Virus record (IMG/VR): IMGVR_UViG_2531839433_000003
DNA: 21,842 nt
Strand: one strand, 5' to 3'
DNA from: a virus
Taxonomy: Duplodnaviria > Heunggongvirae > Uroviricota > Caudoviricetes
Shown in pieces: positions 1 through 19,222 of the stretch. Numbering within the stretch: position 1 is the first letter of the stretch; each line of letters opens with the position of its first letter. The notes under the pieces are model-generated. The model made no database searches. It saw only the letters and a program-made list of their open reading frames with translations, and was not told the origin of the DNA. Made by a program: the position numbers and the translations under genes.

Positions 1-1053
1 TTACGGGGTAATGCCAACCGCTGCCGCCACTTTGTCGCCACTTGGCAATGTTGCCAGAGGATTGAAACGGAGCGCCGTTTCCAGATGATCCGGTGCCAGA
101 TGTGCGTAACGCATAGTCATTTTTATATCGTGGTGTCCGAGAATTTTTTGTAAGGCCAGGATGTTTCCACCCGACATCATGAAGTGCGCCGCAAACGTAT
201 GGCGCAGAACGTGTGTCAGTTGACCGCGAGGGAGCACGATAGACGTTTTTTCCATCACGGATAAAAATTGAAAATAGCAGTCTGTGAAGAAATTGAACCC
301 ATCAAGCGCCATGATCTCTTCGTAAAGCTCTTTACTGATAGGGATGCTTCTGTTTTTCTTCCCCTTCGTTCTTACAAAGGTAATTCGGTATTTGGTCACT
401 TGCGAGCGGGTAAGATTTATTGCTTCTCGCCAGCGTGCGTCTGTGCTTAGGCATATCTTGACTACCAGTGCCAGAATTGGGTCCTGACGTTTGCAATCAG
501 CCAGCAGTTCAACAATCTGCTCATGGGTAAGCCATGCCATTTCTTTTTCTGCGATGGTGAATTTTCGCATGTTCTCCAGTGGGTTCGGATACGACCATTC
601 GCCCAGGCGGGATAGTTCGCTAAAAACACTACTTAGATAGCTTTGCTCCAGGTTAATGGTGACCGGGCTTGCTCCTTTCTTCCATTTCTCGCTGAAGTAG
701 ATCTCTCCTGTCAGGCGTTTATCTCTATAGTGGGCAAACATTTTAGAGGTGAGATCGGTTGCAAGGGGATTGCCCAGAGCGTCAACCATCAACAGCAGTT
801 TGTCATAGACATGCTGCCCAGCTGTCAGAGATTTACCATGTAGTTTGAACCATAGCTCAACCACGTCTTTCAATGTCCGACGATCCACTGGTTCGCCCAG
901 CCAGGGCTTTGCTTCGGTTTCTTCCATCGTGTGACGCTCAAAAGCCAGAGCTTCGCCTTTAGTGGCGAATTGTTTACGCACACGACGCCCACTACGTCCG
1001 GCGGGGTAACATTCGCAAAGCCATTTCCCTGTGGTGAGTTTTCGTACTGCCAT
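1..1053 (-). CDS. int: Tyrosine integrase, P2/186 family; the last 13 codons are encoded by the att core plus host flank
   Basis: 350 aa ORF whose translation resembles P2 Int along its length, including the C-terminal catalytic region (LTHVLRHTFAAHF...GHHDIKMTMRYAHL). Sits at the prophage left end, transcribed toward the att repeat. Confidence 0.88.
   Translation of the reverse strand: MAVRKLTTGKWLCECYPAGRSGRRVRKQFATKGEALAFERHTMEETEAKPWLGEPVDRRTLKDVVELWFKLHGKSLTAGQHVYDKLLLMVDALGNPLATDLTSKMFAHYRDKRLTGEIYFSEKWKKGASPVTINLEQSYLSSVFSELSRLGEWSYPNPLENMRKFTIAEKEMAWLTHEQIVELLADCKRQDPILALVVKICLSTDARWREAINLTRSQVTKYRITFVRTKGKKNRSIPISKELYEEIMALDGFNFFTDCYFQFLSVMEKTSIVLPRGQLTHVLRHTFAAHFMMSGGNILALQKILGHHDIKMTMRYAHLAPDHLETALRFNPLATLPSGDKVAAAVGITP
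19..40. repeat. attL core: 22-bp direct repeat cgctgccgccactttgtcgcca, matching 18988..19009 with one mismatch
   Basis: Read directly: identical at 21 of 22 positions to 18988..19009. One copy lies inside the int 3' end, the other immediately after the ogr stop, which is where a P2-type att lies. Confidence 0.7.
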
Positions 1054-1058
1054 AAAGA

Positions 1059-1078
1059 AGCCCTCATATCAGAGGGCT
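1059..1078 (-). terminator. Stem-loop between the HEPN gene and int; possible attenuator or weak terminator
   Basis: 7-bp perfect inverted repeat agccctc / gagggct with a 6-nt loop. On the minus strand it is followed by a partly T-rich tract and overlaps the int ribosome-binding site. Confidence 0.3.
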
Positions 1079-1141
1079 AAATTTAACTGTGCTTATATAC
1101 AGTGGTCAATGTATGATTTCATTAAAACAGACAAGGGTGTG

Positions 1142-1777
1142 CTATAAATCTGCTCTTAAATTATTTTCAGGGTCATTAGCGATATTTCTTTGTGAATTAT
1201 TAACTAAATCAGAAAATGTATTATCTCGGTCGTTAGATTTAGTTAATCCAATATTCGTATTTGTCGCTTCTAATTCAAGTATTGATGACTCCATCTTCTG
1301 AATAATGGCTACACTATCTATAAAATAGTCGAAAATATATTGAAATGATACTGTGGGGCTTTTCCCATGAGCGAAATCATTTCTGGCTCTATTTAAAGAT
1401 TTCAACGAATCACGTAATTTATTTGAATGCGGATCGTTCTTGATTTTGTCCTTAAAGTTGTTACACCAGTTATTATCAAATGAACCAAGTGCCTTACAAA
1501 TATTATCGTAATTAGGGTTCATTGAACTATTTCTGAATTTTTCATCAATGAATCTTTGTATTTGTTCACTATGTTGATCATATTTATGATCGCTAATGAT
1601 TGTTTTGAAAGAATATTCAATGGTTCCGCAGGTTCTAATAATTGAATATCGTGTTAAATATTTAACAATAGTTGTAGTGGGGCCAGAAGATTCTATCATC
1701 TTCTCTATACTCTCAAGTTCCTTTAAACAATCTATAATGCTATTTTTAGCATTATTATTAACGATATTGAATGCCAT
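1142..1777 (-). CDS. HEPN-motif protein (R-x4-6-H), predicted RNase effector; resembles the MAE_28990/MAE_18760-type HEPN family
   Basis: Motif LNRARNDFAHGKS (RNxxxHG) in the C-terminal third of an AT-rich ORF. GGAG lies 7 nt upstream of the ATG at 1777; the ORF track's longer start at 1810 has no ribosome-binding site. Overlaps the DUF262 gene by 20 nt. Confidence 0.55.
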   Translation of the reverse strand: MAFNIVNNNAKNSIIDCLKELESIEKMIESSGPTTTIVKYLTRYSIIRTCGTIEYSFKTIISDHKYDQHSEQIQRFIDEKFRNSSMNPNYDNICKALGSFDNNWCNNFKDKIKNDPHSNKLRDSLKSLNRARNDFAHGKSPTVSFQYIFDYFIDSVAIIQKMESSILELEATNTNIGLTKSNDRDNTFSDLVNNSQRNIANDPENNLRADL

Positions 1778-2912
1778 AAAGAAACTCCAGTGCCATTGAA
1801 ATTCTTCCATGTATATTTTCTATCTGCATTGTACCAGATGTGATATGTGACCGAAATGTCTGATTTTGTAGTAACTCATTTCTTTTATGCTCTAGATCGT
1901 TAGTGTTTATATCTTCACCTGAATTTAATGCAATGGATGTTGCGACATATAATGCATCAAAAATGGTTGGATAAAAACGACGACGTATACGTGATGGATC
2001 TGATTGGATTATATTAAAGAATGCATCTGGTCCTATATTATCATGAATAAAATTAATGGTGTTTTCAAAATCGGTTTTAATGGTGTCGATCATGTCAGAG
2101 GTGTTATTTGCTTTATCACCCATATATTCATTAAGGAGTTTTTTTAGCGAAATATTTGCTGGTTCATGACTCTTTATTTTCTGCGTGTTAAGAGCCAAGC
2201 CTCTTAGAATGAATTCCATATCTCTCATTCGTGCATCTGGTTTATTAGAACCGAATAAAGTACGCCATTTGATATTATTGTTTAGTTCTATCAATAGAGT
2301 ATTTAATTTCCCTTGATATACGCAATTACGTATTTCTTGAGCCATTAGTGAACGTCCACCAGTATTTATACGCTCAAAAATTTGATATAGGCTAGTATCA
2401 TCGTTCGACGGAACGGTTTGCTCAAAGATTATAGCGTGTATAGTTGTTGAGCGAATTTTCTTTTTTTCTGAAACTGTAAGTTCATTAAAGGCCTTACCAC
2501 GCCATTTTGCATTAATTTTTCTACTATCGGAAAGTTTAAAGACTCTACTATCTTTTGACCATATACCTGTCACATAATCATAGACAGTCATGATTCTCTG
2601 AAAACCATCTATAATGAGTTTGTTTTCGTCAGACGTATTTGCTAAAAAAATACTCGGAACAGGAAGACCTAGCAATAATGAGTCTATAAATCTACTGGCT
2701 TCGACTTTATCCCAAACATAATTTCTTTGAAGTTCTGGTTTCTGAAGTTCGCCCTCATCATACATTGTAATAAGTTCTCTAAAAGATAAATCGGCCCCCC
2801 ATGAGTTTATATTGTATAAATCATCATTTGAGTAAGAATCGTTCTGTTCTTCTTCGATTATCTCTATTGTGTCCTCAAGAGAATTATTATTGATATAATT
2901 GCTGTCAGTCAT
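1758..2912 (-). CDS. DUF262 protein (ParB-like / GmrS N-terminal NTP-binding domain), no fused HNH/DUF1524 domain
   Basis: Motifs PELQRNYVW and IIDGFQR (the DGQQR-type motif) near the N-terminus. Start chosen at MTDSNY (ATG 2910..2912), which has GAGG 5 nt upstream and sits 1 nt after the CI-like stop codon. Confidence 0.72.
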   Translation of the reverse strand: MTDSNYINNNSLEDTIEIIEEEQNDSYSNDDLYNINSWGADLSFRELITMYDEGELQKPELQRNYVWDKVEASRFIDSLLLGLPVPSIFLANTSDENKLIIDGFQRIMTVYDYVTGIWSKDSRVFKLSDSRKINAKWRGKAFNELTVSEKKKIRSTTIHAIIFEQTVPSNDDTSLYQIFERINTGGRSLMAQEIRNCVYQGKLNTLLIELNNNIKWRTLFGSNKPDARMRDMEFILRGLALNTQKIKSHEPANISLKKLLNEYMGDKANNTSDMIDTIKTDFENTINFIHDNIGPDAFFNIIQSDPSRIRRRFYPTIFDALYVATSIALNSGEDINTNDLEHKRNELLQNQTFRSHITSGTMQIENIHGRISMALEFLYGIQYR

Positions 2913-2913
2913 T

Positions 2914-3864
2914 TTAACCTCTAACATTATTAATGGATAATACGATCTTTGCAATAAATTCGATTTCGTTTATTGAACATTCAAAAACTATGTTTTTATT
3001 TTTTACTTGAATTTTTTCATTAGGTAATTTAGTGATTGTTCGAATACTGATATCTCCATCAATACCAACGATCCACTCGCCATCTATAATATTATTGAAT
3101 CTTTTTTCACAAATGTAAAAGTTATTTACATTTTCAATCAAACAAGGAAATATCGTATTTTCAGGTAACAGATTTTTATCAAATATCGAGTTCCCGCTCT
3201 CAATTAATTTTGCATTATTTAGAGTAAACTTTGGTATATTTATACAGTTTAAACTGCTATTTTTTTCTATTTTATCTCCTTTCCCAAAGGCTAACCACGT
3301 GATGGATACTCCTGTTTCGATAGCACACTGAATTACCCAATCAGCAGGAAAAGTATCACGCATATATCGTGTGGCTAACGTGCTTTTTGAAATACCAAGG
3401 TGATCAGCTAAGGCTTGACGTGTCTTGTAACCGTAAGCTTCAACAATTCGTTCTATTACTGCTTTTCCTCCATGAGTGAAATTCATGTGGATTTCATTAT
3501 CGAACAGAGTGGGGGAAGAGTGAACTTTGTCGCAAAGTCCATCTTCGGTTTGTTTTTCAGCATGTTGTTCTAGTGAAGAAGATGACATTCTTTCTTTAAC
3601 ACCTGAACCAAATGCTAGCCATTCAATTGATGCGCCTGTCTCCATCGAGCAGATAACAACCCAATCTGCTGGAAATGTATCGCGGGCATATCTGTTAGCC
3701 ATCGTGCTTTGGGAAATACCTAGGTGATTACAGAATGCCTGGCGTGACTTGAAGCCATAAGCCATGAGGATCCGCTCAATTACTTTCTGACCACCGCGAT
3801 TCTGTATGACAGCGGCTTTCATATCGTCATTCATATGGCGAAATGTGAATTTTTGAGTTGACAT
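2914..3864 (-). CDS. CI-like repressor with two tandem Phage_CI_repr-type HTH domains and an AT-rich C-terminal domain
   Basis: Two internally repeated segments (around residues 14-88 and 120-195) share the pattern ERI..AYG.K.RQA...HLGIS.ST.A.RY.RDTFPADWV..C..ETG.S..WLAFG.G, which resembles the phage 186 CI N-terminal domain. Divergent from the Apl-like gene, in the cI position. Confidence 0.65.
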   Translation of the reverse strand: MSTQKFTFRHMNDDMKAAVIQNRGGQKVIERILMAYGFKSRQAFCNHLGISQSTMANRYARDTFPADWVVICSMETGASIEWLAFGSGVKERMSSSSLEQHAEKQTEDGLCDKVHSSPTLFDNEIHMNFTHGGKAVIERIVEAYGYKTRQALADHLGISKSTLATRYMRDTFPADWVIQCAIETGVSITWLAFGKGDKIEKNSSLNCINIPKFTLNNAKLIESGNSIFDKNLLPENTIFPCLIENVNNFYICEKRFNNIIDGEWIVGIDGDISIRTITKLPNEKIQVKNKNIVFECSINEIEFIAKIVLSINNVRG

Positions 3865-3886
3865 ATTCTTTATGCGAACCTATTCT
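3858..3886 (+). promoter_or_regulatory. Candidate rightward early promoter: TTGACA, 17-nt spacer, TATTCT
   Basis: Perfect -35 hexamer at 3858..3863 and a -10-like TATTCT at 3881..3886 upstream of the Apl-like gene; overlaps the CI-like start codon. No transcript data. Confidence 0.35.
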
Positions 3887-3888
3887 CC

Positions 3889-3918
3889 GTTTTGTGATGT
3901 TGTTATCACGATTAAAAC
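3889..3918. promoter_or_regulatory. Nested palindrome GTTTT-GTGAT-N6-ATCAC-gatt-AAAAC; candidate repressor/Apl operator
   Basis: Inverted repeats read directly in the cI/apl divergent intergenic region. Confidence 0.3.
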
Positions 3919-3952
3919 CAGCTCACCACAAGCTAAAAGGAGATGTTGCATC

Positions 3953-4174
3953 ATGACCCCTAACATTTCAATAACTCTGAATACACCACACGTCACAATC
4001 GAGCGTTATAGCGAACTTACTGGTCTTTCAATCGACACAATCAACGATATGCTGGCAGATGGTCGCATCCCTCGGCATCGTCTTCGTAAAGACAAAAAAA
4101 GAGAAAAGGTAATGATCAACCTTGCTGCTCTTACCGTTGATGCACTTACTGATTGCAATGTTGTATTCAACTAG
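3953..4174 (+). CDS. apl: Apl/Cox-like small HTH excisionase/regulator
   Basis: 73 aa, first rightward gene opposite the CI-like gene, GGAG upstream, HTH-like segment [24 protein letters not shown]. Position matches 186 apl / P2 cox. Confidence 0.55.
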
Positions 4175-4206
4175 TTCCATTTTGGGATATATCAGGGGTG
4201 TCGACT

Positions 4207-4716
4207 ATGTTTGATTACCAAGTTTCCAAACATCCACATTTTGATGAAGCCTGTCGTGCATTCGCGTTGCGCCACAACCTGGTGCAACTGGCAGAACGTG
4301 CAGGCATGAATGTGCAGATTCTGCGGAACAAGCTGAACCCAGCTCAACCTCATTTATTAACCGCACCAGACATCTGGCTGCTTACCGATCTGACTGAGGA
4401 TTCAACGCTGGTAGATGGTTTTCTGGCACAGATTCATTGTCTGCCATGTGTACCAATTAATGAGGTGGCAAAAGAGAAACTGCCACATTACGTCATGAGT
4501 GCAACCGCAGAGATCGGGCGTGTTGCGGCAGGTGCGGTATCTGGCGATGTAAAAACCAGTGCAGGTCGTCGTGATGCTATCAGCAGCATTAACTCTGTAA
4601 CACGACTGATGGCGCTGGCTGCTGTTTCATTGCAGGCCCGTTTACAGGCTAATCCTGCGATGGCGAGCGCAGTTGATACCGTGACTGGCCTCGGTGCTTC
4701 ATTCGGTTTGCTGTGA
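4207..4716 (+). CDS. cII: CII-like transcriptional activator (phage 186 CII type)
   Basis: 169 aa, the same length as 186 CII. N-terminus [20 protein letters not shown] and internal [28 protein letters not shown] match my recollection of 186 CII. Confidence 0.65.
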
Positions 4717-4723
4717 GGTGCTT

Positions 4724-4924
4724 ATGCTTACGAAAGAACCATCATTTGCATCGCTGCTGGTAAAGCAAAGCCCGGCAATGCACTACGGTCACGGCTGGAT
4801 CATGGGTGAGGATGGTAAACGCTGGCATCCATGCCGTTCACAAGATGAATTGCTGGCAGAACTATCTACGAAAAAACGGGGGAACAAATGGCTATTAATG
4901 GCGCTGCAGCAACTGTTCCATTAA
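4724..4924 (+). CDS. Hypothetical early-operon protein, 66 aa
   Basis: ORF with GAGGTG 5 nt upstream of the ATG, in the position of 186 fil. Confidence 0.4.
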   Translation: MLTKEPSFASLLVKQSPAMHYGHGWIMGEDGKRWHPCRSQDELLAELSTKKRGNKWLLMALQQLFH

Positions 4925-5229
4925 GCCCCGGTGAACGCCTGAATGGACTTAATCACATTGCGGAGTTAAGGGCGAAAGTTTTTGGCCTGAATATTGAGTC
5001 AGAGCTTGAGCGGTTTATTAAAGATATGCGTGATCCACGGGATATCAATAATGAACAAAATAAACGGGCACTGGCTGCCATATTCTTTATGGCAAAAATT
5101 CCAGCTGAACGTCATAGCATCAGCATTAATGAGCTGAACACTGACGAAAAGCGGGAGCTGATTAAAGCAATGAATCATTTTCGTGCAGTGGTGAGCTTAT
5201 TTCCCAGACGGCTAACCATGCCGAATTAA
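4888..5229 (+). CDS. Hypothetical early-operon protein, 113 aa
   Basis: ORF with GGGGGAA ribosome-binding site; overlaps the previous ORF by 37 nt. Confidence 0.4.
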   Translation: MAINGAAATVPLSPGERLNGLNHIAELRAKVFGLNIESELERFIKDMRDPRDINNEQNKRALAAIFFMAKIPAERHSISINELNTDEKRELIKAMNHFRAVVSLFPRRLTMPN

Positions 5230-5296
5230 CCAACTAATGAAATTAATGGCGTAAACCCGCCGGGCATCCCTTTATCTAAATTCAGGAGAATTGATT

Positions 5297-5530
5297 ATGC
5301 GTAATATTGAAACCCTCACGACTAAAACCGGACCGGATGATGCAGGGCTTAATATTTTACTGACAGAGGCTCGTCTGGAAGAACGCCGGGCAAGGGCTGA
5401 AGCAATGGCAGCTCGCCTTGATAACCTGGCGTGTCATATCACATCCCGCCAACTAAACCACGTCGAAGCGGCAGAACTGCTGCGTGTGACTGCTGAAGCA
5501 ATCCAGAACGAAGCGCAGGAGATCCACTGA
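5297..5530 (+). CDS. Hypothetical early-operon protein, 77 aa
   Basis: AGGAG 8 nt upstream of the ATG; stop overlaps the next start (TGATG). Confidence 0.4.
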   Translation: MRNIETLTTKTGPDDAGLNILLTEARLEERRARAEAMAARLDNLACHITSRQLNHVEAAELLRVTAEAIQNEAQEIH

Positions 5531-5757
5531 TGGCTGATGCAATGGATCTCGTACAGCAGCGAGTTGAAGAAGAACGCCAACGTCATATCCGTGCTGCCCG
5601 TGCCAAAACGCCGGGCGTGTCCCGCGTGCTTTGCGTTGAGTGTGAAGCGCCAATTCCGCCAGCACGCCGCTGTGCCATTCCGGGGGTGCAGCTTTGCATT
5701 ACCTGTCAGGAAATCGCAGAGCTGAAAGGCAAACATTACAACGGAGGTGCTGTATGA
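5530..5757 (+). CDS. TraR/DksA-family C4 zinc-finger protein
   Basis: CxxC-N17-CxxC (CVEC...CITC) in a 75 aa protein; ATGA overlap with the following dam gene. Confidence 0.7.
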   Translation: MADAMDLVQQRVEEERQRHIRAARAKTPGVSRVLCVECEAPIPPARRCAIPGVQLCITCQEIAELKGKHYNGGAV

Positions 5758-6611
5758 GCACCATCCTGAAATGGGCGGGAAATAAAACCGCCATTATGTC
5801 CGAACTGAAAAAACACCTTCCTGCTGGCCCGCGACTGGTTGAACCTTTCGCGGGTTCCTGTGCTGTGATGATGGAGACGGATTACCCCAGCTATCTGGTT
5901 GCGGATATTAATCCTGATTTAATCAACCTCTATAAAAAGGTTGCTGCTGATTGTGAATCGTTTATATCTCGCGCCAGAGTTTTATTTGAGATCGCAAACA
6001 GGGAGGTGGCTTATTACAACATAAGGCAGGAGTTTAATTACTCCACTGAAATTACTGATTTCATGAAAGCGGTATATTTCCTGTATCTCAATCGTCACGG
6101 TTACCGTGGTTTATGTCGCTATAACAAGAGCGGGCATTTCAACATTCCCTACGGTAATTATAAAAATCCGTATTTCCCTGAAAAAGAAATTCGCGCATTT
6201 GCAGAAAAGGCCCAGCGAGCAACGTTTATCTGCGCCAGCTTTGATGAAACGCTGGCGATGTTGAAGGCGGGGGATGTGGTGTATTGCGATCCGCCGTATG
6301 ACGGTAAGTTTTCCGGCTATCACACTGATGGTTTCACTGAAGATGACCAGTATCACCTGGCATCTGTTCTTGAACATCGGTCATCAGAAGGACATCCGGT
6401 CATTGTTTCTAACAGTGACACATCCCTGATCCGTTCGCTGTATCGCAATTTTACTCACCACTACATCAAGGCAAAACGCAGCATCGGTGTGGCAGCTGGC
6501 GAGGGTAAATCAGCAACAGAAATCATTGCTGTTTCCGGGCCGCGCTGCTGGGTGGGATTTGATTATTCGCGTGGCGTGGATAGTTCTGCCGTGTACGGAG
6601 TACGTGCATGA
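5754..6611 (+). CDS. dam: DNA adenine methyltransferase, Dam-like (GATC N6-adenine)
   Basis: N-terminal LKWAGNK SAM-binding motif and DPPY catalytic motif (DNA 6288..6299); collinear resemblance to E. coli Dam. Translationally coupled on both sides. Confidence 0.85.
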
Positions 6612-9022
6612 GCCATGCCGATATGAACAACTGCTGCGGCTTTAACGAGGCTGCCGCATCGTTCTCATGGAACAGCCCGAAAAAGGCCATTAACCCTTAT
6701 CTGGACCCGGCGGAAGTTGCGCCGGTTTCTGCGCTTTCAAACCTGATCACTCTGTACGCTGCCGATAACGAGCAGGAACAGCTGCGCCGCGAGGCACTGA
6801 GTGATCAGGTCTGGGAGCGTTATTTCTTTAATGAATCCCGTGATCCTGTCCAGCGCGAAATGGAGCAGGATAAGCTCATTAGTCGGGCAAAGCTGGCGCA
6901 TGAGCAGCAGCGTTTTAATCCAGATATGGTCATTCTGGCGGACGTCAATGCCCAGCCTTCCCATATCAGCAAGCCGCTGATGCAACGTATTGAATACTTC
7001 AGCAGCCTTGGCAGGCCAAAGGCTTATTCCCGCTATTTGCGTGAGACGATTAAGCCATGTCTGGAACGGCTGGAGCATGTACGCGACAGTCAGCTATCCA
7101 CTTCTTTTCGCTTTATGGCAAGCCATGAAGGGCTGGACGGCCTGCTGATTCTGCCTGAAATGAGTCAGGATCAGGTGAAACGCCTGTCCACCCTTGTTGC
7201 TGCGCATATGAGCATGTGCCTTGATGCAGCTTGTGGCGATTTGTATGCCACCGATGACGTTAAGCCTGAAGAAATCCGCAAGACATGGGAAAAGGTGACA
7301 GCAGAAACCCTGCGACTGGATGTCATACCGCCTGCGTTTGAGCAACTCCGCCGGAAAAGAAACCGCCGTAAACCCGTGCCTTATGAACTCATTCCGGGTT
7401 CGCTGGCGCGTATGTTGTGCGCCGACTGGTGGTACCGGAAATTATGGAAGATGCGTTGCGAATGGCGGGAAGAGCAGTTGCGTGCTGTTTGCCTGGTCAG
7501 CAAAAAAGCATCTCCCTATGTCAGCTATGAAGCCGTGATGCATAAACGTGAGCAGCGCCGTAAGTCGCTGGAGTTTTTCCGTTCTCATGAACTGGTGAAC
7601 GAAGACGGCGACACGCTGGACATGGAGGATGTGGTAAACGCCAGCAGCAGCAACCCTGCGCATCGCCGCAATGAGATGATGGCCTGTGTTAAAGGTCTGG
7701 AGCTTATCGCGGAAATGCGTGGTGACTGCGCCGTTTTCTACACCATCACCTGTCCGTCACGTTTCCATTCCACGCTAAATAACGGCAGGCCCAACCCGAC
7801 CTGGACAAATACGACGGTAAGACAAAGCAGTGATTATCTGGTCGGCATGTTTGCTGCATTTCGTAAGGCGATGCACAAAGCCGGATTGCGCTGGTATGGC
7901 GTGCGGGTGGCTGAGCCGCATCATGACGGTACAGTTCACTGGCACCTGTTGTGTTTTATGCGCAAAAAAGATCGCCGCGCCATTACTGCTTTGTTGCGTA
8001 AGTTTGCCATTCGTGAAGACCGCGAGGAGCTGGGTAATAACACGGGACCACGCTTTAAGTCTGAGCTGATAAACCCGCGCAAAGGTACGCCAACAAGCTA
8101 CATCGCGAAATACATCAGTAAGAACATTGACGGGCGTGGTCTGGCTGGCGAGATCAGCAAGGAAACGGGTAAATCCCTGCGTGATAACGCTGAATACGTT
8201 AATGCCTGGGCGTCTCTGCATCGTGTTCAGCAATTCCGCTTCTTTGGCATTCCGGGGCGTCAGGCTTACCGTGAACTGCGATTGCTGGCTGGTCAGGCGG
8301 CAAGGCAACAGGGGGACAAAAAAGCAGGTGCGCCGGTACTGGATAACCCGCGCCTTGATGCAATCCTGGCTGCTGCTGATGCTGGTTGTTTTGCCACCTA
8401 CATCATGAAGCAGGGCGGCGTACTGGTTCCCCGCAAATATCACCTCATCAGAACTGCTTATGAAATCAACGAAGAACCGACCGCATATGGCGATCACGGT
8501 ATTCGTATTTATGGCATCTGGTCACCCATTGCAGAGGGCAAGATCTGCACTCATGCGGTGAAGTGGAAAATGGTTCGTAAGGCCGTTGACGTTCAGGAGG
8601 CGGCAGCCGACCAGGGCGCTTGCGCCCCTTGGACTCGTGGCAATAACTGTCCCCTTGCTGAAAATTTGAGCCAACAAGGGAACGACAAATCAGCTGATGG
8701 GGATACCAGAACGGACATTACCCGCATGGATGACAAGGAGTTGCACGATTACCTGCACAGTATGAGCAAAAAAGAGCGCCGGGAACTGGCTGCAAGGTTA
8801 CGCCAGGTGAAACCGAAACGGCGTAAAGACTACAAACAGCGAATTACAAACCATCAGCGACAGCAGCTCGTCTATGAACTGAAGTCCAGAGGATTTGATG
8901 GCAGCGAGAAAGAAGTCGATTTACTCCTTCGCGGCGGCAGTATTCCGTCAGGAGCAGGCCTGCGTATCTTCTATCGGAACCAGCGTTTGCAGGAAGATGA
9001 TAAGTGGCGGGAGCTGTATTAA
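6608..9022 (+). CDS. Rolling-circle replication initiator, P2 gpA / 186 RepA family
   Basis: 804 aa with the metal-binding HWHLL motif (7936..7950) and active-site tyrosine motif YIAKYISK (8099..8122). Start overlaps the dam stop. Confidence 0.85.
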
Positions 9023-10534: not shown

Positions 10535-10553
10535 GGCGTGGCGGGGATACGAG
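10535..10553. other. Probable cos site (P2/186-type cohesive-end sequence)
   Basis: ggcgtggcgggga matches the first 13 nt of the P2/186 cohesive end as I recall it (GGCG[A/T]GGCGGGGAAAGCA). It is embedded in a GC-rich structured island between the replication side and the portal side, where cos lies in P2. Confidence 0.45.
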
Positions 10554-11380: not shown

Positions 11381-11459
11381 ATAAATTTTTGCGCAGTGCT
11401 ACAATGCTGCGCCAAACATCCACCACCGGATGATGAGGCTTGACCTCTAAGAGGAAATC

Positions 11460-11639
11460 ATGACTATGACGCATAGTGACAAGAAAGCTCAGAAGCATTA
11501 CTCAGTATCTGATGTTTTCAGCCGTATGGGCGTCGCGATGGAAGAACTACTTCAAGCGGCCCCACATATGATGCAGGACTGCAAATTTGAAGGAAATGAG
11601 CTGCATGGTAAGCTCAAAGAAAAGCAGAAAGCTGCTTAA
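11460..11639 (+). CDS. Small hypothetical protein, 59 aa
   Basis: GAGG 5 nt upstream of the ATG; followed within 25 nt by a strong intrinsic terminator. Below the ORF-track length cut-off; translated by hand. Confidence 0.5.
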   Translation: MTMTHSDKKAQKHYSVSDVFSRMGVAMEELLQAAPHMMQDCKFEGNELHGKLKEKQKAA

Positions 11640-11661
11640 TTCCATGAAATGCGTTTTGCAT

Positions 11662-11688
11662 GAAGCCCGGTAATACCGGGCTTTTTTA
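11662..11688 (+). terminator. Rho-independent terminator
   Basis: Hairpin agcccgg(taata)ccgggct followed by TTTTTT; sits between the convergent small gene and the portal 3' fragment. Confidence 0.7.
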
Positions 11689-11694
11689 TGCTTG

Positions 11695-11815
11695 CTAGTC
11701 AGTATTAAGCTCATATGGATTGAATCGGACTACCTCTTCACCAAGCCATTCATTTAGCTCCAGCAATCGCTTTTGTAACGGTACTATTTCGTTTCTTGTG
11801 AAGACGCGACTGGCC
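11695..11815 (-). pseudogene. Portal gene (P2 gpQ type) 3' fragment, separated from the rest by the IS66-family insertion
   Basis: Minus-strand frame read by hand through the IS junction encodes ...RLLELNEWLGEEVVRFNPYELNTD then a stop at 11695..11697. Confidence 0.5.
11808..11815. repeat. Target-site duplication gactggcc, left copy
   Basis: Identical 8-mer directly abuts both IS ends (11808..11815 and 14515..14522). Confidence 0.8.
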
Positions 11816-11845
11816 GTAAGCGGCTCGTCAGAACCGTATTGATAT

Positions 11846-13417
11846 TTACTGAGAGCTCAGATCAACTTTCCAGGGCAACAGATCGCGTACCCGGTTTGCC
11901 GGCCAGTCCTGGATATGTTCAATGACGTAGCGCAGCCACTTTTCTGGCTCCACATTGTTCAGACGGCATGTGCCGATCAGCGAGTACAACACCGCCGCAT
12001 GTTCACCACCGCTGTCGGAACCCGCGAACATCCACTTTTTCCGGCCTACGGCCACTCCCCGTAAGGCGTTCTCTGCGATGTTGTTGTCGATTTCCACCCA
12101 GCCATTACTGCAGTACACGTTCAGTGCATCCCACTGTTTCAGCAGGTATGCGAACGCTTTTGCCGTATCTGAGTGACGCGACAGTGTTTTCATCTGTTGC
12201 TGTATCCAGTCATACAGTGACTGCATCAGTGGCGCGGCTCTGGTTTTTCTTGCCGCCAGACGCTGTTCTGCTGAACAGCCCCGGACCTCTGCCTCGATGG
12301 CATACAGTTCACCGATACGCTGCAGGGCTTCCGTGGTGATGTCGGTGGGCGCTCTTGCATGCACATCGTGGATTTTTCTCCGGGCATGAGCCATACACGC
12401 GGCTTCCGTTATTCTGCCGGATTCGTATAACGCCCGGTAACCACCGTAAGCATCGGCCTGAAGCACACCGCTGTAACCGGCCAGGTGATTTTGTGGATGG
12501 ATACCTTTCCGGTCCGGACTGTACGCGAACCAGACCGCCGGGGGCATCTGTGAACCGGCGTTACGGTCATCACGGACGTAGACCCACAGCCGGGCTGTCC
12601 GGGTTTTACCGCTGCCCGGCTCCTGGACCGGGACGGGGATATCATCAGCATGGACTTTACCGGGCATCAGCACATACTGGCGCAGGACGTCATACAGCGG
12701 CTCCAGTAGTTCAGCAACGGCACCTGTCCAGCGCCCCAGTGTGGCACGGCTCAGCTCCACACCCTGACGGCGGTATATCTCTGACTGGCGGTATAACGGC
12801 AGATGGTCTGCATATTTTCCGGTGACGACATGGGCCAGGAGCCCCGCTCCGGCATAACTGCGTGCAATGGGTTTTGAAGGTACTGGTGCCTGCACGATAT
12901 GGTCGCACCGACAACAGGCCAGTTTCGGACGTTGTGTTTCGATAACCTTAAAGGCGCTGCTGATAAGCTCCAGTTGCTCTGACACATCACATCCCAGAGA
13001 ACTGAGTTCACCACCACAGGCAGGACAGCATTCCTCTTCCGGCCGGATAACCCGGGTTTCACGGGGAAGTGAGGCCGGTAACGGTTTACGGGCTGAAGAC
13101 TGGCGCAGGGCGGATGGCAGTACCGGGTCATATTGCTCACCCAGCGTTTCCGCCATTTCTTCCTGAAGTGCGCTGATTCGCTCCTGTGCTTCCTGTATCT
13201 GCCGTTCGGTTTTTGCACGAAGTTTTTCTGAGCTTTTACCGAACTGCATACGTTGCAGTTTCGCAACCAGCGCCTTCAGCCGGTTGATTTCGGAAGCATA
13301 AGCCGCCACCCGCTGTGAGAGCAGGCGGTTGTATTCAGCCATCTGGCGTATGGTGTCCTGTTGCGTCTGCAACAGTGCCCGCAGGCGGGCGTTCTCATGA
13401 GCAAGTGAGGTGTCCAT
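11846..13417 (-). CDS. tnpC: IS66-family transposase (TnpC)
   Basis: 523 aa with an N-terminal coiled-coil/leucine-zipper region and a Cys-rich segment, as in IS66-family TnpC. Confidence 0.85.
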
Positions 13418-13436
13418 ATCCTCACTTTACAACGGG

Positions 13437-13784
13437 TTATATGCGGATTCCAGCGCGTTCCGTTCGTTTCGGGTGCTTCCAGTTGATACCTTCAAGAAGC
13501 ATGGATAACTGAGCCGGAGTAAGGTGCACCTTGCCGTCACGGGTGACTGGCCAGACGAAGCGGCCCCGCTCCAGGCGTTTGGTGAAGAGGCACAGTCCGT
13601 CACTGTCAGCCCACAACACTTTTATCTGGTCACCCCGGCGTCCGCGGAAGATGAACAGGTGTCCGGAGAACGGGTCATCCTTCAGGACGTTCTGAACTTT
13701 TGATGCCAGGCCGTTAAAGCCATTTCGCATATCGGTGATACCTGCAACCAGCCAGATACGCGAACCTGCAGGGAGAGATATCAT
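13437..13784 (-). CDS. tnpB: IS66-family accessory protein TnpB (Orf2)
   Basis: 115 aa, MISLPAGSRIWLVAGITDMR..., as in IS66 Orf2; ATGA overlap with the upstream ORF. Confidence 0.8.
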   Translation of the reverse strand: MISLPAGSRIWLVAGITDMRNGFNGLASKVQNVLKDDPFSGHLFIFRGRRGDQIKVLWADSDGLCLFTKRLERGRFVWPVTRDGKVHLTPAQLSMLLEGINWKHPKRTERAGIRI

Positions 13785-14461
13785 CAGTGGCTGCTCCCTT
13801 TTATTTCGCGGATAAGTGTCTGTAATAACGCCGGCGTCAGTTTACCTTTAAGCCTGAGAGTTCCGGCCGGCAGAACCAGCTCACAACACAGACTGTCGGA
13901 CGGTGTATTTATCTGCTCTGGTTCCTGTGCGGGGGCCGGGATTTTATTATCCGGCTCCGGCGTTAACGTCACGGGAAGCAGTGCCGGCATATTTTTTCCG
14001 GAAGGCAGCAGGCCACCTTTCCGGTATTGATGGCGCCAGTTGAAGAGCAGGTTATCGTTGATTCCGTTTTCCCGGGCGATCTGCGCCACACAGGCTCCGG
14101 GCTGCAGTGACTGCTCCACTAAGGCGATTTTAAACTCATAAGGGAAGTTGGGCCGCCGGGGACGTTTTTTTACCACGGGGGCTTCGGATATAACGGTGCT
14201 TTCAGGACGTACGACTGGTACCGTGGAAAATTGTCCGTAAAGGCAGGCATCAAGTTCCTGCTCCGACATGCCTGCGGGCAAAGGCCACGAAAGGCCAGCT
14301 CTCCGAAAGCGCACGAACATACTACAAACTGTTGATTTTGGTACACCCAGGCGACGCCCGGCCACAACCCGGGGTAAATGTTCTTCAAAGTGAAGACGTA
14401 AAGCTTCAGTGATCCAGGTCCGGTGTTTCATACGATAGTGTCCATTAAAAATGATGGACAT
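13784..14461 (-). CDS. tnpA: IS66-family accessory protein TnpA (Orf1); start uncertain
   Basis: First ORF inside the IS, leftward, coupled to tnpB. The true start may be the internal Met (MKHRTW...). Confidence 0.6.
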   Translation of the reverse strand: MSIIFNGHYRMKHRTWITEALRLHFEEHLPRVVAGRRLGVPKSTVCSMFVRFRRAGLSWPLPAGMSEQELDACLYGQFSTVPVVRPESTVISEAPVVKKRPRRPNFPYEFKIALVEQSLQPGACVAQIARENGINDNLLFNWRHQYRKGGLLPSGKNMPALLPVTLTPEPDNKIPAPAQEPEQINTPSDSLCCELVLPAGTLRLKGKLTPALLQTLIREIKGSSH

Positions 14462-14514
14462 TATTTTTGTAGAGCCGGAGGAAACAGACCAGACGGTTTA
14501 AATGAGCCGGTTAC

Positions 14515-14522
14515 GACTGGCC
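14515..14522. repeat. Target-site duplication gactggcc, right copy
   Basis: Identical to 11808..11815. Confidence 0.8.
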
Positions 14523-15439
14523 TTTTCCACATCCCCAAAACCGCCGGTATTGTTGGGAATGATACCCATCATTTGCGGCGGCACACGATGCGCCGCCATC
14601 ATGTCGTCCCGGCTCACGTTCTTGATATTCAGGAACTCATCCTTCGCCGCCACTTCTGACAACGGGATAATCTGAAGCCCATCCTTTTTGCCGTTAGGCG
14701 AGTACATAAACAGGTTACGGAAGTTACCAGGACCTTTGGCACTTTTCATTGCGTTGCGGAGGTTGTTCACATCCTCCTGGTTCTGCGCGGCGTCGGTCAT
14801 GTACATGATGAAGCCCGCATGGCTGCCGTTGATGTAATACTTCCGGCGGAACAGCGTGGCGGACTCGTTGAGCAGGGCTGACGGAATGGCAGAAAGATAA
14901 CCGGGCAGGCCGTAGATCTCCTGGTTGATGTCCGGCTCCATCAGATGAAAAATGCTGCCTTTCGTGAACTGATACGGCTGGGTTGTCATACCGTATTGCA
15001 CAAACCAGTAGGTATCCAGGTCTAACCCGCGTCGGGTGTATTTTGCCAGAGCAGGCTCAAGGGCTATAACTTCACCGAAGCGGTTCGTGCGTTTCTCCAG
15101 GTAGGCGTTACCAAAAACCAGATAGTCCTGTACAAAACGCGAAAAAGCCTGCTGGCTGAGCAGCGGGTGAGGGATGTAGGTGCTGGTCAGAATGTTGCAC
15201 TTTACTGCAATCGGGGAACTATGATGAACGGCAGCGCGGAAGGTGCGCGCCAGTCCGTCAAAGCTGACGGGCGGCTCATACCAGCGGTCCATCTGTACGC
15301 ATTCCACATAATCCAGCAGCTCTCGGCGGTCCAGAACAGGAACGGGATCGCCGAAGCTGAATGCTTCGGCTGTAGTTTGACTTTTAAGCTGGATCTGTTT
15401 CGTCGCCGCAGCGCGGTTCTTCTTACTCTTTCCCATCAA
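14515..15439 (-). pseudogene. Portal gene (P2 gpQ type) 5' portion, interrupted near its 3' end by the IS
   Basis: ORF 14498..15439 translates to a P2 Q-like portal; its last few codons read into IS sequence. Start overlaps the terminase stop (ATGA). Confidence 0.75.
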
Positions 15440-17202
15440 AAAATCTCCACAATATTGCTGGTATTGGCGGATTCGCCCTGCAGCGGTTCGTTAAACAGTG
15501 CGTGCATCGTTGCCCAGGCCAGATCGGCGTGGCTGGCTTCTTCGCTGCGGCTGGCTTCATAGGTCGGGCGGTTGCCACTGGCGGTGGTGGCGCGACGGAT
15601 TGCCATAAAGGACTGCGCTATGTCGGTGTGTCCGGCGTCAAACTCCAGACGGCGGTGGCTGATAATGTCGTAGGCCTTGAGTACCAGGGCGTTTTTAACG
15701 TTGGGGTTGTAGACAAACTCCCGGACGGCAGGAAAAAACGCTTTCACGTTCTCGTAAACCCCGTGACCAACGCCGGTTGAGTCGATACCGATATAGGTCA
15801 CGTTGTACTGTTCGGTCAGTTTTTTGATGGCGTCCGCCTGGGCGCGGAAGTCCATTCCGCGCCACTGGTGACGCTCAAGAATGCGGAACTTACCGCCCGG
15901 CACGGCTGGCGGCGCCACCACCACGCATCCGGCGCTGTCGCCGTTCTGCGTACCTTTCGCCGGATCATATCCGATCCACACTTCGCGCCAGCCAAACGGG
16001 CGCAGGGCCAGTGCATGAAAGTCGGTCCAGACTTCCCAACTGTCCACCATGCACGCCTGCAGCTCGCTGAGTGGGAACACAGACGCGAGATCGTCCACGA
16101 ACTCACACATCAGCAGGTTCTGGTATTCGTCCGGGCTGTACTCCATGCGCAACTGATCGAGGTCGAACAGGTTACAGCCGCCGCGCACCGCATCTTCCAC
16201 AGTGACTATCTGGCGGTACTGCCCGTCTGCGCACAGCAGGCCGGGGGCCAGATTGCTGTGGGACAGGTCGATGTCCACCTTATCGGCTTTGTTGCGCCCT
16301 CGGTTGAATAGCGCACCGGACCAGAACGGATAAGCACTGTGTGTCAGGCTGGATGGCGTGGAAAAATAGGTTTGTCGCCATTTTTTGTGAATAGCCATAC
16401 CGGAAGCCACTTTGCGCAGCTCCTGGAATTTCGGTATCCAGAAATATTCATCCAGATACAGGTTGCCGTGGTAACTCTGGGCCGTGCGGGCATTGGTGCC
16501 GAGGAAGTACAGCGTGGCCCCGTTAGGAAGCACCATCGGATCGCCTTTCAGCTCCACCTCCACTTCTTTGGCGAAGTCGATGATGTACTGCTTAAAGACG
16601 TGGGCCTGAGCCTTGCTGGCGGAAAGGAAAATCTGGTTACGCCCGGTTAGCAGGGCGTCAATCAGGGCTTCACGGGCAAAATAGAAGGTCGCGCCGATCT
16701 GGCGTGACTTCAGCAGGTTGCGGATGCGGTTGGTTTTTCCGGCTTCCCACCAGTGGCGCTGGTAGTTGAACATGGAGGAATGGAAGATTTCTTCCAGCTT
16801 CTCAATCTGTTCATCGGTGAAAACGTTCTTTTCCGGCTGACGGCGCGGGCCTTTGTTGCGGTTGGCGACGTTAGGGTTTAAGTCGGCTTCGTTGCCGCCA
16901 TTGTTAAACTTGCCGATCCGCGCATGGCGCTCCGACTGGCGCGCCAGCAGGTCAATCTCTTTGAAATCTTTCCCTTCTTTGTGCTCCTTCATAATGAGCT
17001 GGCAGTAGCGTGCGGCGGTGGTGAGCTGCATCTGATCCAGCGGCCCATAGTCACCCCACTTGTCGCGTTTTTTCCAGCTGTGAACGGTTGCAACTTTCTC
17101 GCCCAGCATTTCAGCAATGCGGGCTACGCGGTATCCCTGAAAGTACAGCAGCATGGCCTGCCGACGGGGATCGAGATCTGCGGGTGTCAGTGTGGTGTTC
17201 AT
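15436..17202 (-). CDS. Terminase large (ATPase) subunit, P2 gpP type
   Basis: 588 aa, close to the 590 aa of P2 gpP; resembles it along its length; coupled to the portal gene. Confidence 0.85.
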   Translation of the reverse strand: MNTTLTPADLDPRRQAMLLYFQGYRVARIAEMLGEKVATVHSWKKRDKWGDYGPLDQMQLTTAARYCQLIMKEHKEGKDFKEIDLLARQSERHARIGKFNNGGNEADLNPNVANRNKGPRRQPEKNVFTDEQIEKLEEIFHSSMFNYQRHWWEAGKTNRIRNLLKSRQIGATFYFAREALIDALLTGRNQIFLSASKAQAHVFKQYIIDFAKEVEVELKGDPMVLPNGATLYFLGTNARTAQSYHGNLYLDEYFWIPKFQELRKVASGMAIHKKWRQTYFSTPSSLTHSAYPFWSGALFNRGRNKADKVDIDLSHSNLAPGLLCADGQYRQIVTVEDAVRGGCNLFDLDQLRMEYSPDEYQNLLMCEFVDDLASVFPLSELQACMVDSWEVWTDFHALALRPFGWREVWIGYDPAKGTQNGDSAGCVVVAPPAVPGGKFRILERHQWRGMDFRAQADAIKKLTEQYNVTYIGIDSTGVGHGVYENVKAFFPAVREFVYNPNVKNALVLKAYDIISHRRLEFDAGHTDIAQSFMAIRRATTASGNRPTYEASRSEEASHADLAWATMHALFNEPLQGESANTSNIVEIF

Positions 17203-17344: not shown

Positions 17345-18178
17345 ATGACAGTGAAAGCAAAGCGTTTTCGCATCGGGGTGGAAGGTGCCACCACCGACGG
17401 ACGCGAAATCCAGCGTGAATGGCTGGAACAGATGGCAGCCAGCTACAACCCGGCGGTGTATACCGCGCTGATTAACCTTGAGCACATCAAGTCTTATCTG
17501 CCGGACAGCACCTTTAACCGCTACGGCAAGGTGACGGCGCTGTTTGCTGAAGAAATCACGGAAGGTCCGCTGGCAGGCAAGATGGCGCTGTATGCCGACG
17601 TTGAGCCAACGGAGTCCCTGGTGGAACTGGTGAAAAAAGGCCAGAAATTATTCACCTCTATGGAAGTCAGCCCGAAGTTCGCTGATACGGGCAAAGCCTA
17701 TCTGGTCGGCCTGGCTGCCACTGATGACCCTGCCAGTCTGGGTACGGAAATGCTGACATTCAGCGCCAGTGCAGCCCATAACCCGCTGGCAAACCGCAAG
17801 CAGAATCCTGCCAATCTCTTTACCGCTGCAGAGGAAACGGTGATCGAACTGGAAGAAATCCAGGACGACAAACCGTCCCTGTTTGCCCGCGTCACGGCGC
17901 TGTTTACCAAAAAAGAGCAATCCGATGACGCCCGGTTCTCTGATGTGCATAAGGCCGTGGAGCTGGTCGCCACTGAGCAGCAGAACCTGAGCGCACGCAC
18001 CGAAAAATCCCTGTCTGAGCAGGAAGAACGCCTGTCTGAGCTGGAGACTGCCCTGCAGGCACAGCAAACCGCCTTTAACGAACTGGTGGACAAGCTGAGT
18101 CATGAAGACAGTCGCCAGGACTACCGCCAGCGTGCAACAGGCGGTAACGCCCCCGCTGACACTCTGACCAATTGCTGA
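17345..18178 (+). CDS. Capsid scaffolding protein, P2 gpO type
   Basis: 277 aa (P2 gpO is 284 aa), divergent from the terminase gene, with an acidic coiled-coil C-terminal half. Confidence 0.8.
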   Translation: MTVKAKRFRIGVEGATTDGREIQREWLEQMAASYNPAVYTALINLEHIKSYLPDSTFNRYGKVTALFAEEITEGPLAGKMALYADVEPTESLVELVKKGQKLFTSMEVSPKFADTGKAYLVGLAATDDPASLGTEMLTFSASAAHNPLANRKQNPANLFTAAEETVIELEEIQDDKPSLFARVTALFTKKEQSDDARFSDVHKAVELVATEQQNLSARTEKSLSEQEERLSELETALQAQQTAFNELVDKLSHEDSRQDYRQRATGGNAPADTLTNC

Positions 18179-18194
18179 TGGAGCACAAAACCCG

Positions 18195-18572
18195 ATGAAG
18201 AAGAATACCCGCTTTGCTTTTAACGCTTACCTGCAGCAGCTGGCGCGTCTGAACGGTGTGGCAGTTGAAGAACTGTCCAGCAAGTTCACCGTGGAGCCGT
18301 CTGTGCAGCAGACGCTGGAAGACCAGATCCAGCAGTCCGCCGCTTTCCTGACGCTGATTAACGTCACGCCAGTGACTGAGCAGTCCGGTCAGCTGCTGGG
18401 GCTGGGAGTTGGCAGCACCATTGCCGGAACCACTGACACCACCGCGAAAGAGCGTGAACCTGTCGATCCGACGCTGATGGTCGATGTGGAATATAAATGC
18501 GAGCAGACCAACTTTGACACGGTGCTGACCTACGCGAAGCTGGACCTGTGGACGGGGTGGGCTCTTAGATGA
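18195..18572 (+). pseudogene. Major capsid protein (P2 gpN type), N-terminal about 125 aa only
   Basis: Begins MKKNTRFAFNAYLQQLARLNG...KFTVEPSVQQTL like P2 gpN, but terminates after 125 aa where about 357 are expected. Confidence 0.7.
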
Positions 18573-18573
18573 T

Positions 18574-18678
18574 GCGGAATGGACCATTACGACTCTGACG
18601 CATACCGTCAGCCCCGATAACGGTTTTACAACCAGTCTGGAGCTTGAAGTGAGGATTGATGATTTCGAAATGGAATGA
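18574..18678 (+). pseudogene. Possible C-terminal remnant of tail gene D fused out of frame to the capsid fragment
   Basis: The +1 frame reads ...TITTLTHTVSPDNGFTTSLELEVRIDDFEME then stop, about 90 nt upstream of ogr, where D lies in P2. Assignment is by position and frame only. Confidence 0.3.
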
Positions 18679-18768
18679 TTCTTCGCAATGGAGAACTTTT
18701 AAGTTTGCAAAATGGAATAATGCGGTATCATTATTGTGAATTTAGCAAAAATGGGGAGAACTCGAAAA

Positions 18769-18987
18769 ATGATGATTTGCCCACTGTGTGGAAGTGCCGC
18801 CCATACTCGCAGCAGTTTTCAGGTATCTTCATTGACCAAAGAACGTTACAACCAGTGCCAGAACATTAACTGCAGCCATACTTTTGTTACCCATGAAACT
18901 TTTGTTCGTTCGATTGCAACGCCAAAAGAGTCAAATCCGGTTCAGCCGCATCCAATGAAATCAGGACAGGTGGCGCTCTCTCTTTGA
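18769..18987 (+). CDS. ogr: Ogr-type zinc-finger late transcription activator
   Basis: 72 aa, MMICPLCGSAAHTRSS...KERYNQCQNINCSHTF, parallel to P2 Ogr (CPLC...KERYHQCQNVNCSATF); last prophage gene before attR. Confidence 0.85.
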   Translation: MMICPLCGSAAHTRSSFQVSSLTKERYNQCQNINCSHTFVTHETFVRSIATPKESNPVQPHPMKSGQVALSL

Positions 18988-19009
18988 CGCTGCCGCCATT
19001 TTGTCGCCA
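18988..19009. repeat. attR core: 22-bp direct repeat cgctgccgccattttgtcgcca
   Basis: See attL; begins at the base after the ogr stop codon. Confidence 0.7.
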
Positions 19010-19074
19010 TCGTTAAAAAACAGTGTTTCTAACATCATGATTTTAAACAGCTTAAATTTCAGGCAACAAAAAAC

Positions 19075-19111
19075 CCATCAACCTTGAACCGAAATGGCGG
19101 GGTTGATGGGC
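19075..19111 (-). terminator. Probable ybjL rho-independent terminator
   Basis: 10-bp stem cccatcaacc / ggttgatggg; on the minus strand it is followed by six T. Confidence 0.45.
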
Positions 19112-19222
19112 TCCACAAAATGGGGACATCAAAGAAAAGCAGTGGCACTAATTAAGACTGATGCCCTGCGGAAAAGTTCTGCGGTTGTGCAAAAAAATTT
19201 CATTTTCAGGGCAACTTCAGTT

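Follow-up and report, generated by a model that had tools for sequence, protein, structure and literature searches.

The stretch analysed here, a window of 21,842 nucleotides from IMG/VR virus record IMGVR_UViG_2531839433_000003, is E. coli chromosome and matches six complete genomes at 100%. To judge by its sequence, it holds a defective prophage of the 186/P2-like group (Peduoviridae). The collinear gene set is of P2 type (int, CI, cII, Dam and gpA; Q and P on one strand, facing O and N; D-ogr beside attR), Pfam matches comprise Phage_GPA, Terminase_5/6N/6C, Phage_GPO, Phage_cap_P2 and Ogr_Delta, and DNA identity to the Peduoviridae records Escherichia phage 500465-1 and Klebsiella phage 4LV2017 is 97–99.8%. 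Near the right end of this element the start of the major capsid gene N is joined, through a 14-nucleotide (nt) island, to the end of the tail gene D, and an intact ogr gene follows. Here we describe this joint, the block of genes that is missing from it, and a nucleotide in D at which other prophages of the same locus are also broken.

A capsid stump and a tail-gene remnant upstream of ogr

The 5' third of the P2-family major capsid gene (N', codons 1–119) occupies positions 18195..18551 on the plus strand, and its frame stays open up to a stop codon made by the junction (18570–18572). The resulting open reading frame (ORF), 18195–18572, encodes 125 amino acids, the length at which an earlier interpretation of the bare letters (the sequence-only reading) had a gpN-like frame stop. 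Its first 119 residues are identical to the 352-residue capsid proteins of phage 500465-1 and of a prophage in E. coli fS25a (locus L005), while the junction supplies the last six, TGWALR. N' covers positions 1–113 of the 327-position Pfam profile Phage_cap_P2. Since it is identical to the first third of full-length N, it is not a naturally short capsid paralogue. Against intact N genes, DNA identity runs at 97–99.8% and then ends abruptly at 18551/18554; in a BLAST search of the phage collection, 97.5–99.8% identity extends over O and the start of N and stops at 18554. Base-by-base comparison sets the final N nucleotide at 18551 (...CTGTGG) and the initial D nucleotide at 18566 (TAGATGATGCGG...).

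From there, the final 111 nt and the stop codon of tail gene D ('D; late control D) extend over 18566..18678 on the plus strand, out of frame with N'. They encode the last 36 residues (codons 331–366) of the 366-residue D protein, which end in LELEVRIDDFEME before the stop and are identical in L005. The sequence-only reading had recognised a D-gene 3' end between the capsid frame and ogr, and the alignment of this fragment to D bears it out; the fragment does derive from a tail gene. The block of homology that begins at 18566 spans the D 3' end and ogr and reaches up to attR, with identities of 99.9% to L005 (window 18566–19300 against L005 38052–38786), 94% to 4LV2017 and 90% to 500465-1. Both fragments are already known as pseudogenes in the NCBI PGAP annotation, which labels N' 'missing C-terminus' and 'D 'missing N-terminus'.

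The gene for the zinc-finger late-gene activator Ogr is intact (18769..18987, plus strand; Pfam Ogr_Delta, full-length, 5e-22), and its product, WP_000972391.1, is identical in near-intact L005, REL606 and others. It starts 90 nt past the 'D stop and 196 nt past that of N', the latter distance having been put at about 100 nt before. In the D-ogr spacer, a consensus scan picked out a candidate sigma-70 promoter for ogr (TTTGCA-16-TATCAT, 18704..18731, plus strand), a weak one, as the count of sigma-70-like sites does not exceed shuffle expectation. Just 3' of it, at 18735–18743, lies the 9-mer TGTGAATTT, which also occurs at 3844–3852 in the CI-apl switch region. A CI operator at the ogr promoter has been described for pB of phage 186, and TGTGAATTT could be a putative CI operator at the ogr promoter here.

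Extent of the lost block

To map the breaks, the window was aligned with 500465-1, 4LV2017 and the fS25a prophage at the rybB locus. Alignment to N and D, proposed beforehand as a check, places the left break at N codon 119/120 and the right break 111 nt ahead of the D end. Compared with 4LV2017, positions 17068–32927 (15.9 kb) are absent; compared with 500465-1, positions 11558–29029 (17.5 kb). The closest relative is the fS25a prophage, with identical terminase and Ogr proteins and a right arm of 99.9% identity. Of its sequence, 17720–20836 and 20851–38051 are missing from the window, a loss of 17.6 kb once its own ISCro1 copy is removed, made up of 3.1 kb from N to lysA and 14.5 kb from lysA to D.

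Lost with this block are the rest of N, M, L, X, holin, lysozyme, a lysA-like gene, LysB/C, R, S, V, W, J, I, H, the tail-fibre assembly genes, the invertase, FI, FII, E, E', T, U and 330 codons of D. All three alignments thus show the whole N-to-D interval to be absent, as the sequence-only reading had stated. Its inventory of what is kept stands for int, CI, cII, Dam, gpA, P, O and ogr, but not for the terminase as a whole: the small subunit gene M is among the deleted genes, and the large subunit P is the only one retained. Because two thirds of the capsid gene, M, the head-completion, lysis and tail genes are gone and the portal gene is split, we infer that the element could make neither capsids, tails or particles nor lyse the cell. 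In the six carrier genomes, a 91-nt N/D junction probe found no second match at megablast sensitivity, so that no closely related helper is evident.

Anatomy of the junction

Between N and D lie 14 nucleotides (ACGGGGTGGGCTCT, 18552..18565, plus strand) that match a lysA-like lysis gene inside the deleted interval. They agree with L005 20837–20850 at 13/14 positions in the same orientation and in collinear order, or at 18/19 with the flanking TGG and TTA, and at 12/14 with the homologous positions of 500465-1 and 4LV2017. When 14-mers were shuffled, 17 of 3000 (0.6%) matched the plus strand of the deleted interval as well. The window contains no other copy of the 14-mer. A check for microhomology at the joint, likewise proposed beforehand, found the island bordered by TGG on the left (18549–18551, common with N) and TA on the right (18566–18567, common with D); no insertion sequence (IS) end, att core or long repeat was found there. 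The sequence-only reading had passed over this island, along with the IS66-family insertion in the portal gene described below and the existing RefSeq pseudogene labels.

These data indicate a compound junction, N...TGG / lysA island / TA...D, of which the 3-nt and 2-nt microhomologies and the templated island are the marks of illegitimate, homology-independent recombination. It could have been formed at one stroke, by a complex repair or replication event in which the template was switched twice; alternatively, two successive microhomology-mediated deletions could have left the 14-nt island between them. The deletions in the related REL606 and KL53 prophages also show microhomology of 1–2 nt. 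We are confident of the overall picture: the whole morphogenesis-lysis block was in all likelihood removed by microhomology-mediated illegitimate deletion, the ISCro1 insertion was a separate event, and the disarmed remnant has persisted.

A breakpoint in gene D shared by five junctions

Does the right-hand break fall at an arbitrary point of D? When carriers of the junction were counted, further junctions came to light, in searches that were anchored on this D site and under-count classes that break elsewhere. Five distinct junctions at the rybB locus end at one D nucleotide within ±1 nt, 18565/18566 in the window (L005 38051/38052), where the sequence reads TAGATGATG. The same breakpoint lies at L004 12002, L011 6002 and L013 6008, and is also found in L015, L016 and L018. 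In class 1, the window and its six genomes, the N'/lysA island side (...GGGCTCT) is joined to TAGATG. In class 2 (O6:H16 M9682-C1), the P-O spacer (...GTGTGGTT) runs into AGATG. Class 3, with its left break inside P (...GCTTCGTT / AGATG), is present in 106 complete genomes, for example WCHEC020031, and class 4, broken inside cII (...GTGCGGTA / GATG), in strain E3. Class 5, broken inside L (...CAGCCGGGT / AGATG), occurs in three IMG/VR contigs and a single contig of a human-gut metagenome, and is absent from the complete genomes. Each of the five junctions can be read as D kept from T18566 or A18567, with microhomology of 1–2 nt.

Could these junctions descend from a single ancestral joint? In the pairs compared (P'/D with the window and with M9682-C1, and cII'/D with the window), the left arms are only 93–94% identical, i.e. 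6–7% apart. Moreover, two single-nucleotide polymorphisms (SNPs), 50 and 65 nt away from the joint, divide the classes into two haplotypes, each of which also occurs in intact prophages. The divergent arms and the two haplotypes argue for independent events in different phage backgrounds, and against a single joint passed on by descent. About 1,300 of 5,426 complete genomes carry a 3' fragment of D. The D 3' end is intact in 960 of 1317 genomes, and we estimate that the data hold a few dozen deletion classes at most, for which uniformly distributed breaks would yield about 0.1 coincidences with the breakpoint of the window, against the four seen. Chance therefore does not explain the shared D endpoint. 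Other breakpoints in D do occur: REL606, H254, H264 and KL53 retain D remnants of 300–740 nt, joined with 1–2 nt of microhomology, and in K-12 PR-X the remnant measures about 219 nt. That nucleotide 18565/18566 is a genuine deletion hot spot, a fork-arrest or nicking site that repeatedly turns rybB-integrated P2-like prophages into D-ogr-attR remnants, is a proposal that we put forward tentatively, with slightly less than even confidence.

Search for a cause at the D site

What might single out this nucleotide? At the D boundary neither an IS end nor, farther right, an inverted boundary copy is present, and the site has no long palindrome or cruciform, only distant 9-nt inverted repeats and modest hairpins. 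On the plus strand of intact D, a cluster of hairpins ends 1–2 nt before the break (−18.2 kcal/mol, z −3.8), the upstream hairpin lying at L005 38013–38050, and small hairpins follow after it. The partner site of class 5 in L bears an imperfect similarity to the D site (CAGCCG...GATGCG), which the other partner sites lack.

Several candidate causes were tried and discarded. For a pseudo-origin acted on by gpA, the D site was compared with gene A, which contains the origin; the highest-scoring match is 13/15, a score equalled by 11% of shuffles. As for a pseudo-cos, the cos-like site at 10535 has no convincing likeness to the D site. No mosaic or module boundary is seen among intact D genes, identity being 92–100% on both sides in close relatives and lower, but flat, in the two most divergent genomes. 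A plasmid-borne or mobile right arm is not indicated either, as all nine plasmid matches include D upstream of the site and none starts there; in a scan of GTDB species representatives, all five matches outside E. coli have an intact D. The 12-mer GCCGATAGATGA, which spans the D breakpoint (L005 38047–38058), recurs inverted in ybjL (39361–39372), 1.3 kb to the right. We judge this a probable coincidence, because the junctions seen are not those that an inverted repeat would produce and about 0.15 such matches are expected by chance. Resemblances noted by inspection only were at chance level or absent and are not taken as evidence: GATGATGC against the IS1 terminus (8/10), SfaNI-type GCATC and StyLTI-type CAGAG sites near the break, a type I-E ATG protospacer-adjacent motif 32 nt to the left, and Cin/Hin-type crossover, Chi and Ter-like sites. 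Literature searches gave no usable account of a described hot spot or of the P2 A-protein nick sequence.

The position of rybB-ybjL on the K-12 map suggests that the host fork crosses the prophage from int toward ogr. As a hypothesis, a fork arrested at the D site might break, the broken arm be degraded and the end be rejoined illegitimately, which would fix the right end and let the left end vary, as happens at terB.

Host genomes and integration site

The six carriers, in which the whole window is 100% identical, are 504239, 67-1, WS1933D, TW11681 (an enterotoxigenic E. coli), S1-NGR-02-A and LR883000. They were independently sequenced as complete genomes, share the N'/D junction at 100% identity and are the only ones in which it was found; they constitute one clone with a presumably vertically inherited remnant. 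In the RefSeq annotation of TW11681 the locus extends from a phage integrase gene next to rcdA to grxA. The integrase gene is followed by genes for a HEPN protein and a GmrSD-type protein, by CI, cII, Fil, TraR/DksA-like, Dam and gpA, and by a few small ORFs. Then come the portal gene, split by an IS66-family element, P, O, the capsid pseudogene, the 'late control protein D' pseudogene and ogr, and finally the host genes ybjL, ybjM and grxA.

The small RNA (sRNA) gene rybB was located at 19065–19143 on the minus strand (Rfam RybB, 105 bits, E 4e-21). The attR core, a 19-nt match at 19060–19078 that forms the right prophage boundary, overlaps its 3' end, which places the prophage, on the evidence of these coordinates, in the 3' end of rybB. 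attL lies 92 nt left of the window, where the attR core recurs with 3 mismatches; a 14-bp core, AACAAAAAACCCAT, is common to both, its attR copy being at 19065–19078. The att flanks agree with attL and attR as annotated in 4LV2017. Counted from attL, the element is about 19.2 kb long, of which ISCro1 and its target duplication take up 2.7 kb and phage DNA about 16.5 kb, compared with about 35.4 kb for a near-intact relative at the rybB site. At another locus, the K-12 P2 stump PR-X overlaps the 3' end of cyaR (L012 7115–7201 versus 7184–7812). These two 3'-end overlaps show that P2-family phages use the 3' ends of sRNA genes much as other phages use tRNA genes.

The portal insertion and other retained genes

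The portal gene Q is interrupted by ISCro1, an IS66-family element with tnpA, tnpB and a DDE transposase gene (11816..14514, minus strand; Pfam DDE_Tnp_IS66), leaving fragments at 11695–11815 and 14515–15439 that PGAP annotates as portal pseudogene fragments. Its ends read GTAAGCG.../...CCGGTTAC, and both copies of the 8-bp target duplication GACTGGCC are intact and could be read directly. With this duplication preserved in Q, 4 kb from the junction, ISCro1 is a simple insertion, independent of the deletion. In the fS25a prophage, a tail-fibre gene contains a copy 99.3% identical (L005 27468–30166, duplication CCTTAAGA), so ISCro1 has struck the lineage on at least two occasions. Left of the IS, the 3'-terminal portal fragment (11695–11815) matches none of the portal genes of L004, L005 and L011 at the DNA level, and the rest of Q matches at about 93%, which suggests a mosaic joint inside Q.

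Beside Q, the large terminase subunit gene P is intact (15436..17202, minus strand; Pfam Terminase_5/6N/6C), its product WP_001098431.1 being identical in L005. The gene for the capsid scaffold/protease O is intact too (17345..18178, plus strand; annotated by PGAP; Pfam Phage_GPO, full-length, 3.7e-113). The early region, 1..9022, is retained according to PGAP and Pfam: integrase (1–1053, minus strand), a defence pair (1142–2954, minus strand), CI (2914–3864, minus strand), cII, Fil, TraR/DksA-like, Dam (5754–6611) and the replication endonuclease gpA (6608–9022). The defence pair between int and CI is PD-T4-2-like (PADLOC PD-T4-2_A 2e-55, PD-T4-2_B 2e-8); one protein has a RiboL-PSP HEPN domain, matching PD-T4-2_B, and the other GmrSD_N/DUF262, matching PD-T4-2_A and also NsnA. 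At this int-CI position, relatives carry a KAP NTPase (fS25a) or a hypothetical protein (4LV2017). CI, with 316 residues here as against 189 in fS25a and E3, contains two helix-turn-helix stretches of the Phage_CI_repr type and a CI C-terminal domain and is, by its predicted domains, a repressor variant with a duplicated helix-turn-helix.

The cos-like sequence at 10535 reads GGCGTGGCGGGGATACGA. Three ORFs, 9767–10192 (minus strand), 10826–11380 and 11460–11639, have no Pfam or PADLOC match; the variable gpA-portal region in which they lie (window 9767–11700) carries retrons, an HsdR-like protein or P-loop NTPases in relatives.

Discussion

How, then, did the N/D joint arise? Nested deletions with one fixed end are classically caused by IS elements; the prophage contains ISCro1, and IS1 copies lie near related remnants. 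An adjacent deletion by ISCro1 or another IS would, however, leave the IS at the joint, and between 18551 and 18566 there is none. Nor does ISCro1 itself, at its distance and with its target duplication undisturbed, or the agreement of the 14 junction nucleotides with a lysis gene instead of an IS terminus, speak for such an origin, which we consider very unlikely. With its integrase, immunity, replication, cos-like site, large terminase, scaffold and ogr, the element also has the superficial look of a helper-dependent one. Yet that it is an evolved capsid-less satellite, or has a short capsid paralogue, and is not a decayed prophage, seems to us highly improbable. N' and 'D are identical or nearly so, at the nucleotide level, to parts of full-length genes, stop in mid-domain and are mutually out of frame, the portal gene is split by an IS, and the annotation lists no psu, sid, delta-fusion or alpha-primase genes. 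Besides, the junction is confined to one clone of six genomes, whereas other lineages harbour a full prophage at the same locus. That an assembly or scaffolding error created the joint is hardly conceivable, given a 21.8-kb sequence that is identical in six genomes sequenced independently.

A different kind of alternative refines illegitimate deletion instead of replacing it: the break on the D side would occur at a site-specific fragile point, through fork arrest or a nick, and be rejoined on the left to whichever point degradation or template switching had reached, giving nested deletions of which the window is one product. Here we find the evidence evenly balanced. The common endpoint of five junctions, the independence suggested by their left arms and haplotypes, the excess over the coincidences expected and the position of the break just 3' of the hairpin cluster all favour it, and the pattern of one fixed and one variable end resembles the deletion hot spots reportedly described at the replication arrest site terB by Bierne, Ehrlich and Michel in 1991. 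On the other hand, the hairpins are modest, and no causal element was found among IS ends, inverted boundary copies, palindromes, likenesses to gene A or cos, mosaic boundaries and plasmid-borne starts. REL606, H254, H264 and KL53 break elsewhere in D, and the count of such classes is incomplete, the searches having been anchored on the site.

Some observations weigh against illegitimate deletion of the block as we have described it, or limit what it explains. The sequence, as far as it can be read, fits a one-step and a two-step origin alike. At one base the island disagrees with all relatives examined, and its assignment to lysA depends on 13/14 matches and on position (p about 0.006). The coincidence of the right break with four other deletion classes means that the initiating lesion may have been site-specific, not random. 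Finally, a divergent P2-like prophage elsewhere in the six genomes might complement the element, the probe search at megablast sensitivity having covered close relatives.

What does the deletion mean for its host? In itself it matters little: this is textbook disarming, in which structural and killing genes are lost while immunity, integrase, defence cargo and regulator are kept. Judging from the genes that remain, the remnant would be harmless and possibly useful to its host. Bobay et al. are said to have reported in 2014 that hosts retain disarmed prophages. The defective element described here fits the general picture of such retention (reviewed in PMC6379469). It represents ordinary prophage decay, of a well-known kind and already flagged by automatic annotation. 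New are the compound junction with its island, the ISCro1 in the portal gene, the retained PD-T4-2-like pair and the recurrent D breakpoint, the last being the only feature likely to surprise a specialist. The compound junction, for its part, has some value as a clean footprint, left in nature, of template switching mediated by microhomology in E. coli. If the D nucleotide is indeed a hot spot, the decay of prophages at rybB would be channelled by a defined DNA feature and be partly deterministic instead of following random breakage. A real fragile site would furthermore provide a tractable natural system for illegitimate recombination and fork arrest, and could explain the recurring 'D-ogr-attR stumps in E. 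coli.

How does the element compare with known systems? The core genes of P4-like satellites are psu, sid, delta, alpha (primase-helicase) and alpA (PMC8628076). Unlike these satellites, the window has none of the core genes annotated, replicates, by its gene content, with a P2-type gpA and encodes a P2-type ogr with a single domain. K-12 PR-X (the yegZ pseudogene and ogrK, beside cyaR) likewise retains a D 3' end, an intact ogr, attR and an overlap with an sRNA 3' end. Unlike the window, it measures 629 bp, has lost its entire left part with int and attL, sits at another locus, belongs to the true P2 lineage and keeps its own, longer piece of D.

Nearer to the window is the prophage of E. coli B (REL606/BL21), which shares the rybB-ybjL site, the phage lineage, an identical Ogr and illegitimate internal deletions. 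In REL606 (L020, 894894–913605) there are two of these, from O to lysozyme and from the invertase to D, each with 1-nt microhomology, and one spares ogr. In contrast to the window, REL606 keeps most of the baseplate and tail-fibre genes and a D remnant of 402 nt, with its breakpoint at L005 37762. The P'/'D remnants (106 genomes) and those of M9682-C1, E3 and the L015 type have in common with the window the rybB locus, the D breakpoint, a retained ogr and 1–2 nt of microhomology; they differ in their left breaks (in P, the P-O spacer, cII and L), in their backgrounds, 93–94% identical in the compared pairs, and in lacking a templated island. Beyond prophages, the terB hot spots and microhomology-mediated template switching would come closest. 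Unlike terB, the D site revealed no Ter-like sequence or other barrier, but microhomology of 1–3 nt, a short insertion templated by the deleted interval and a recurrent endpoint with variable partners are reportedly common to both.

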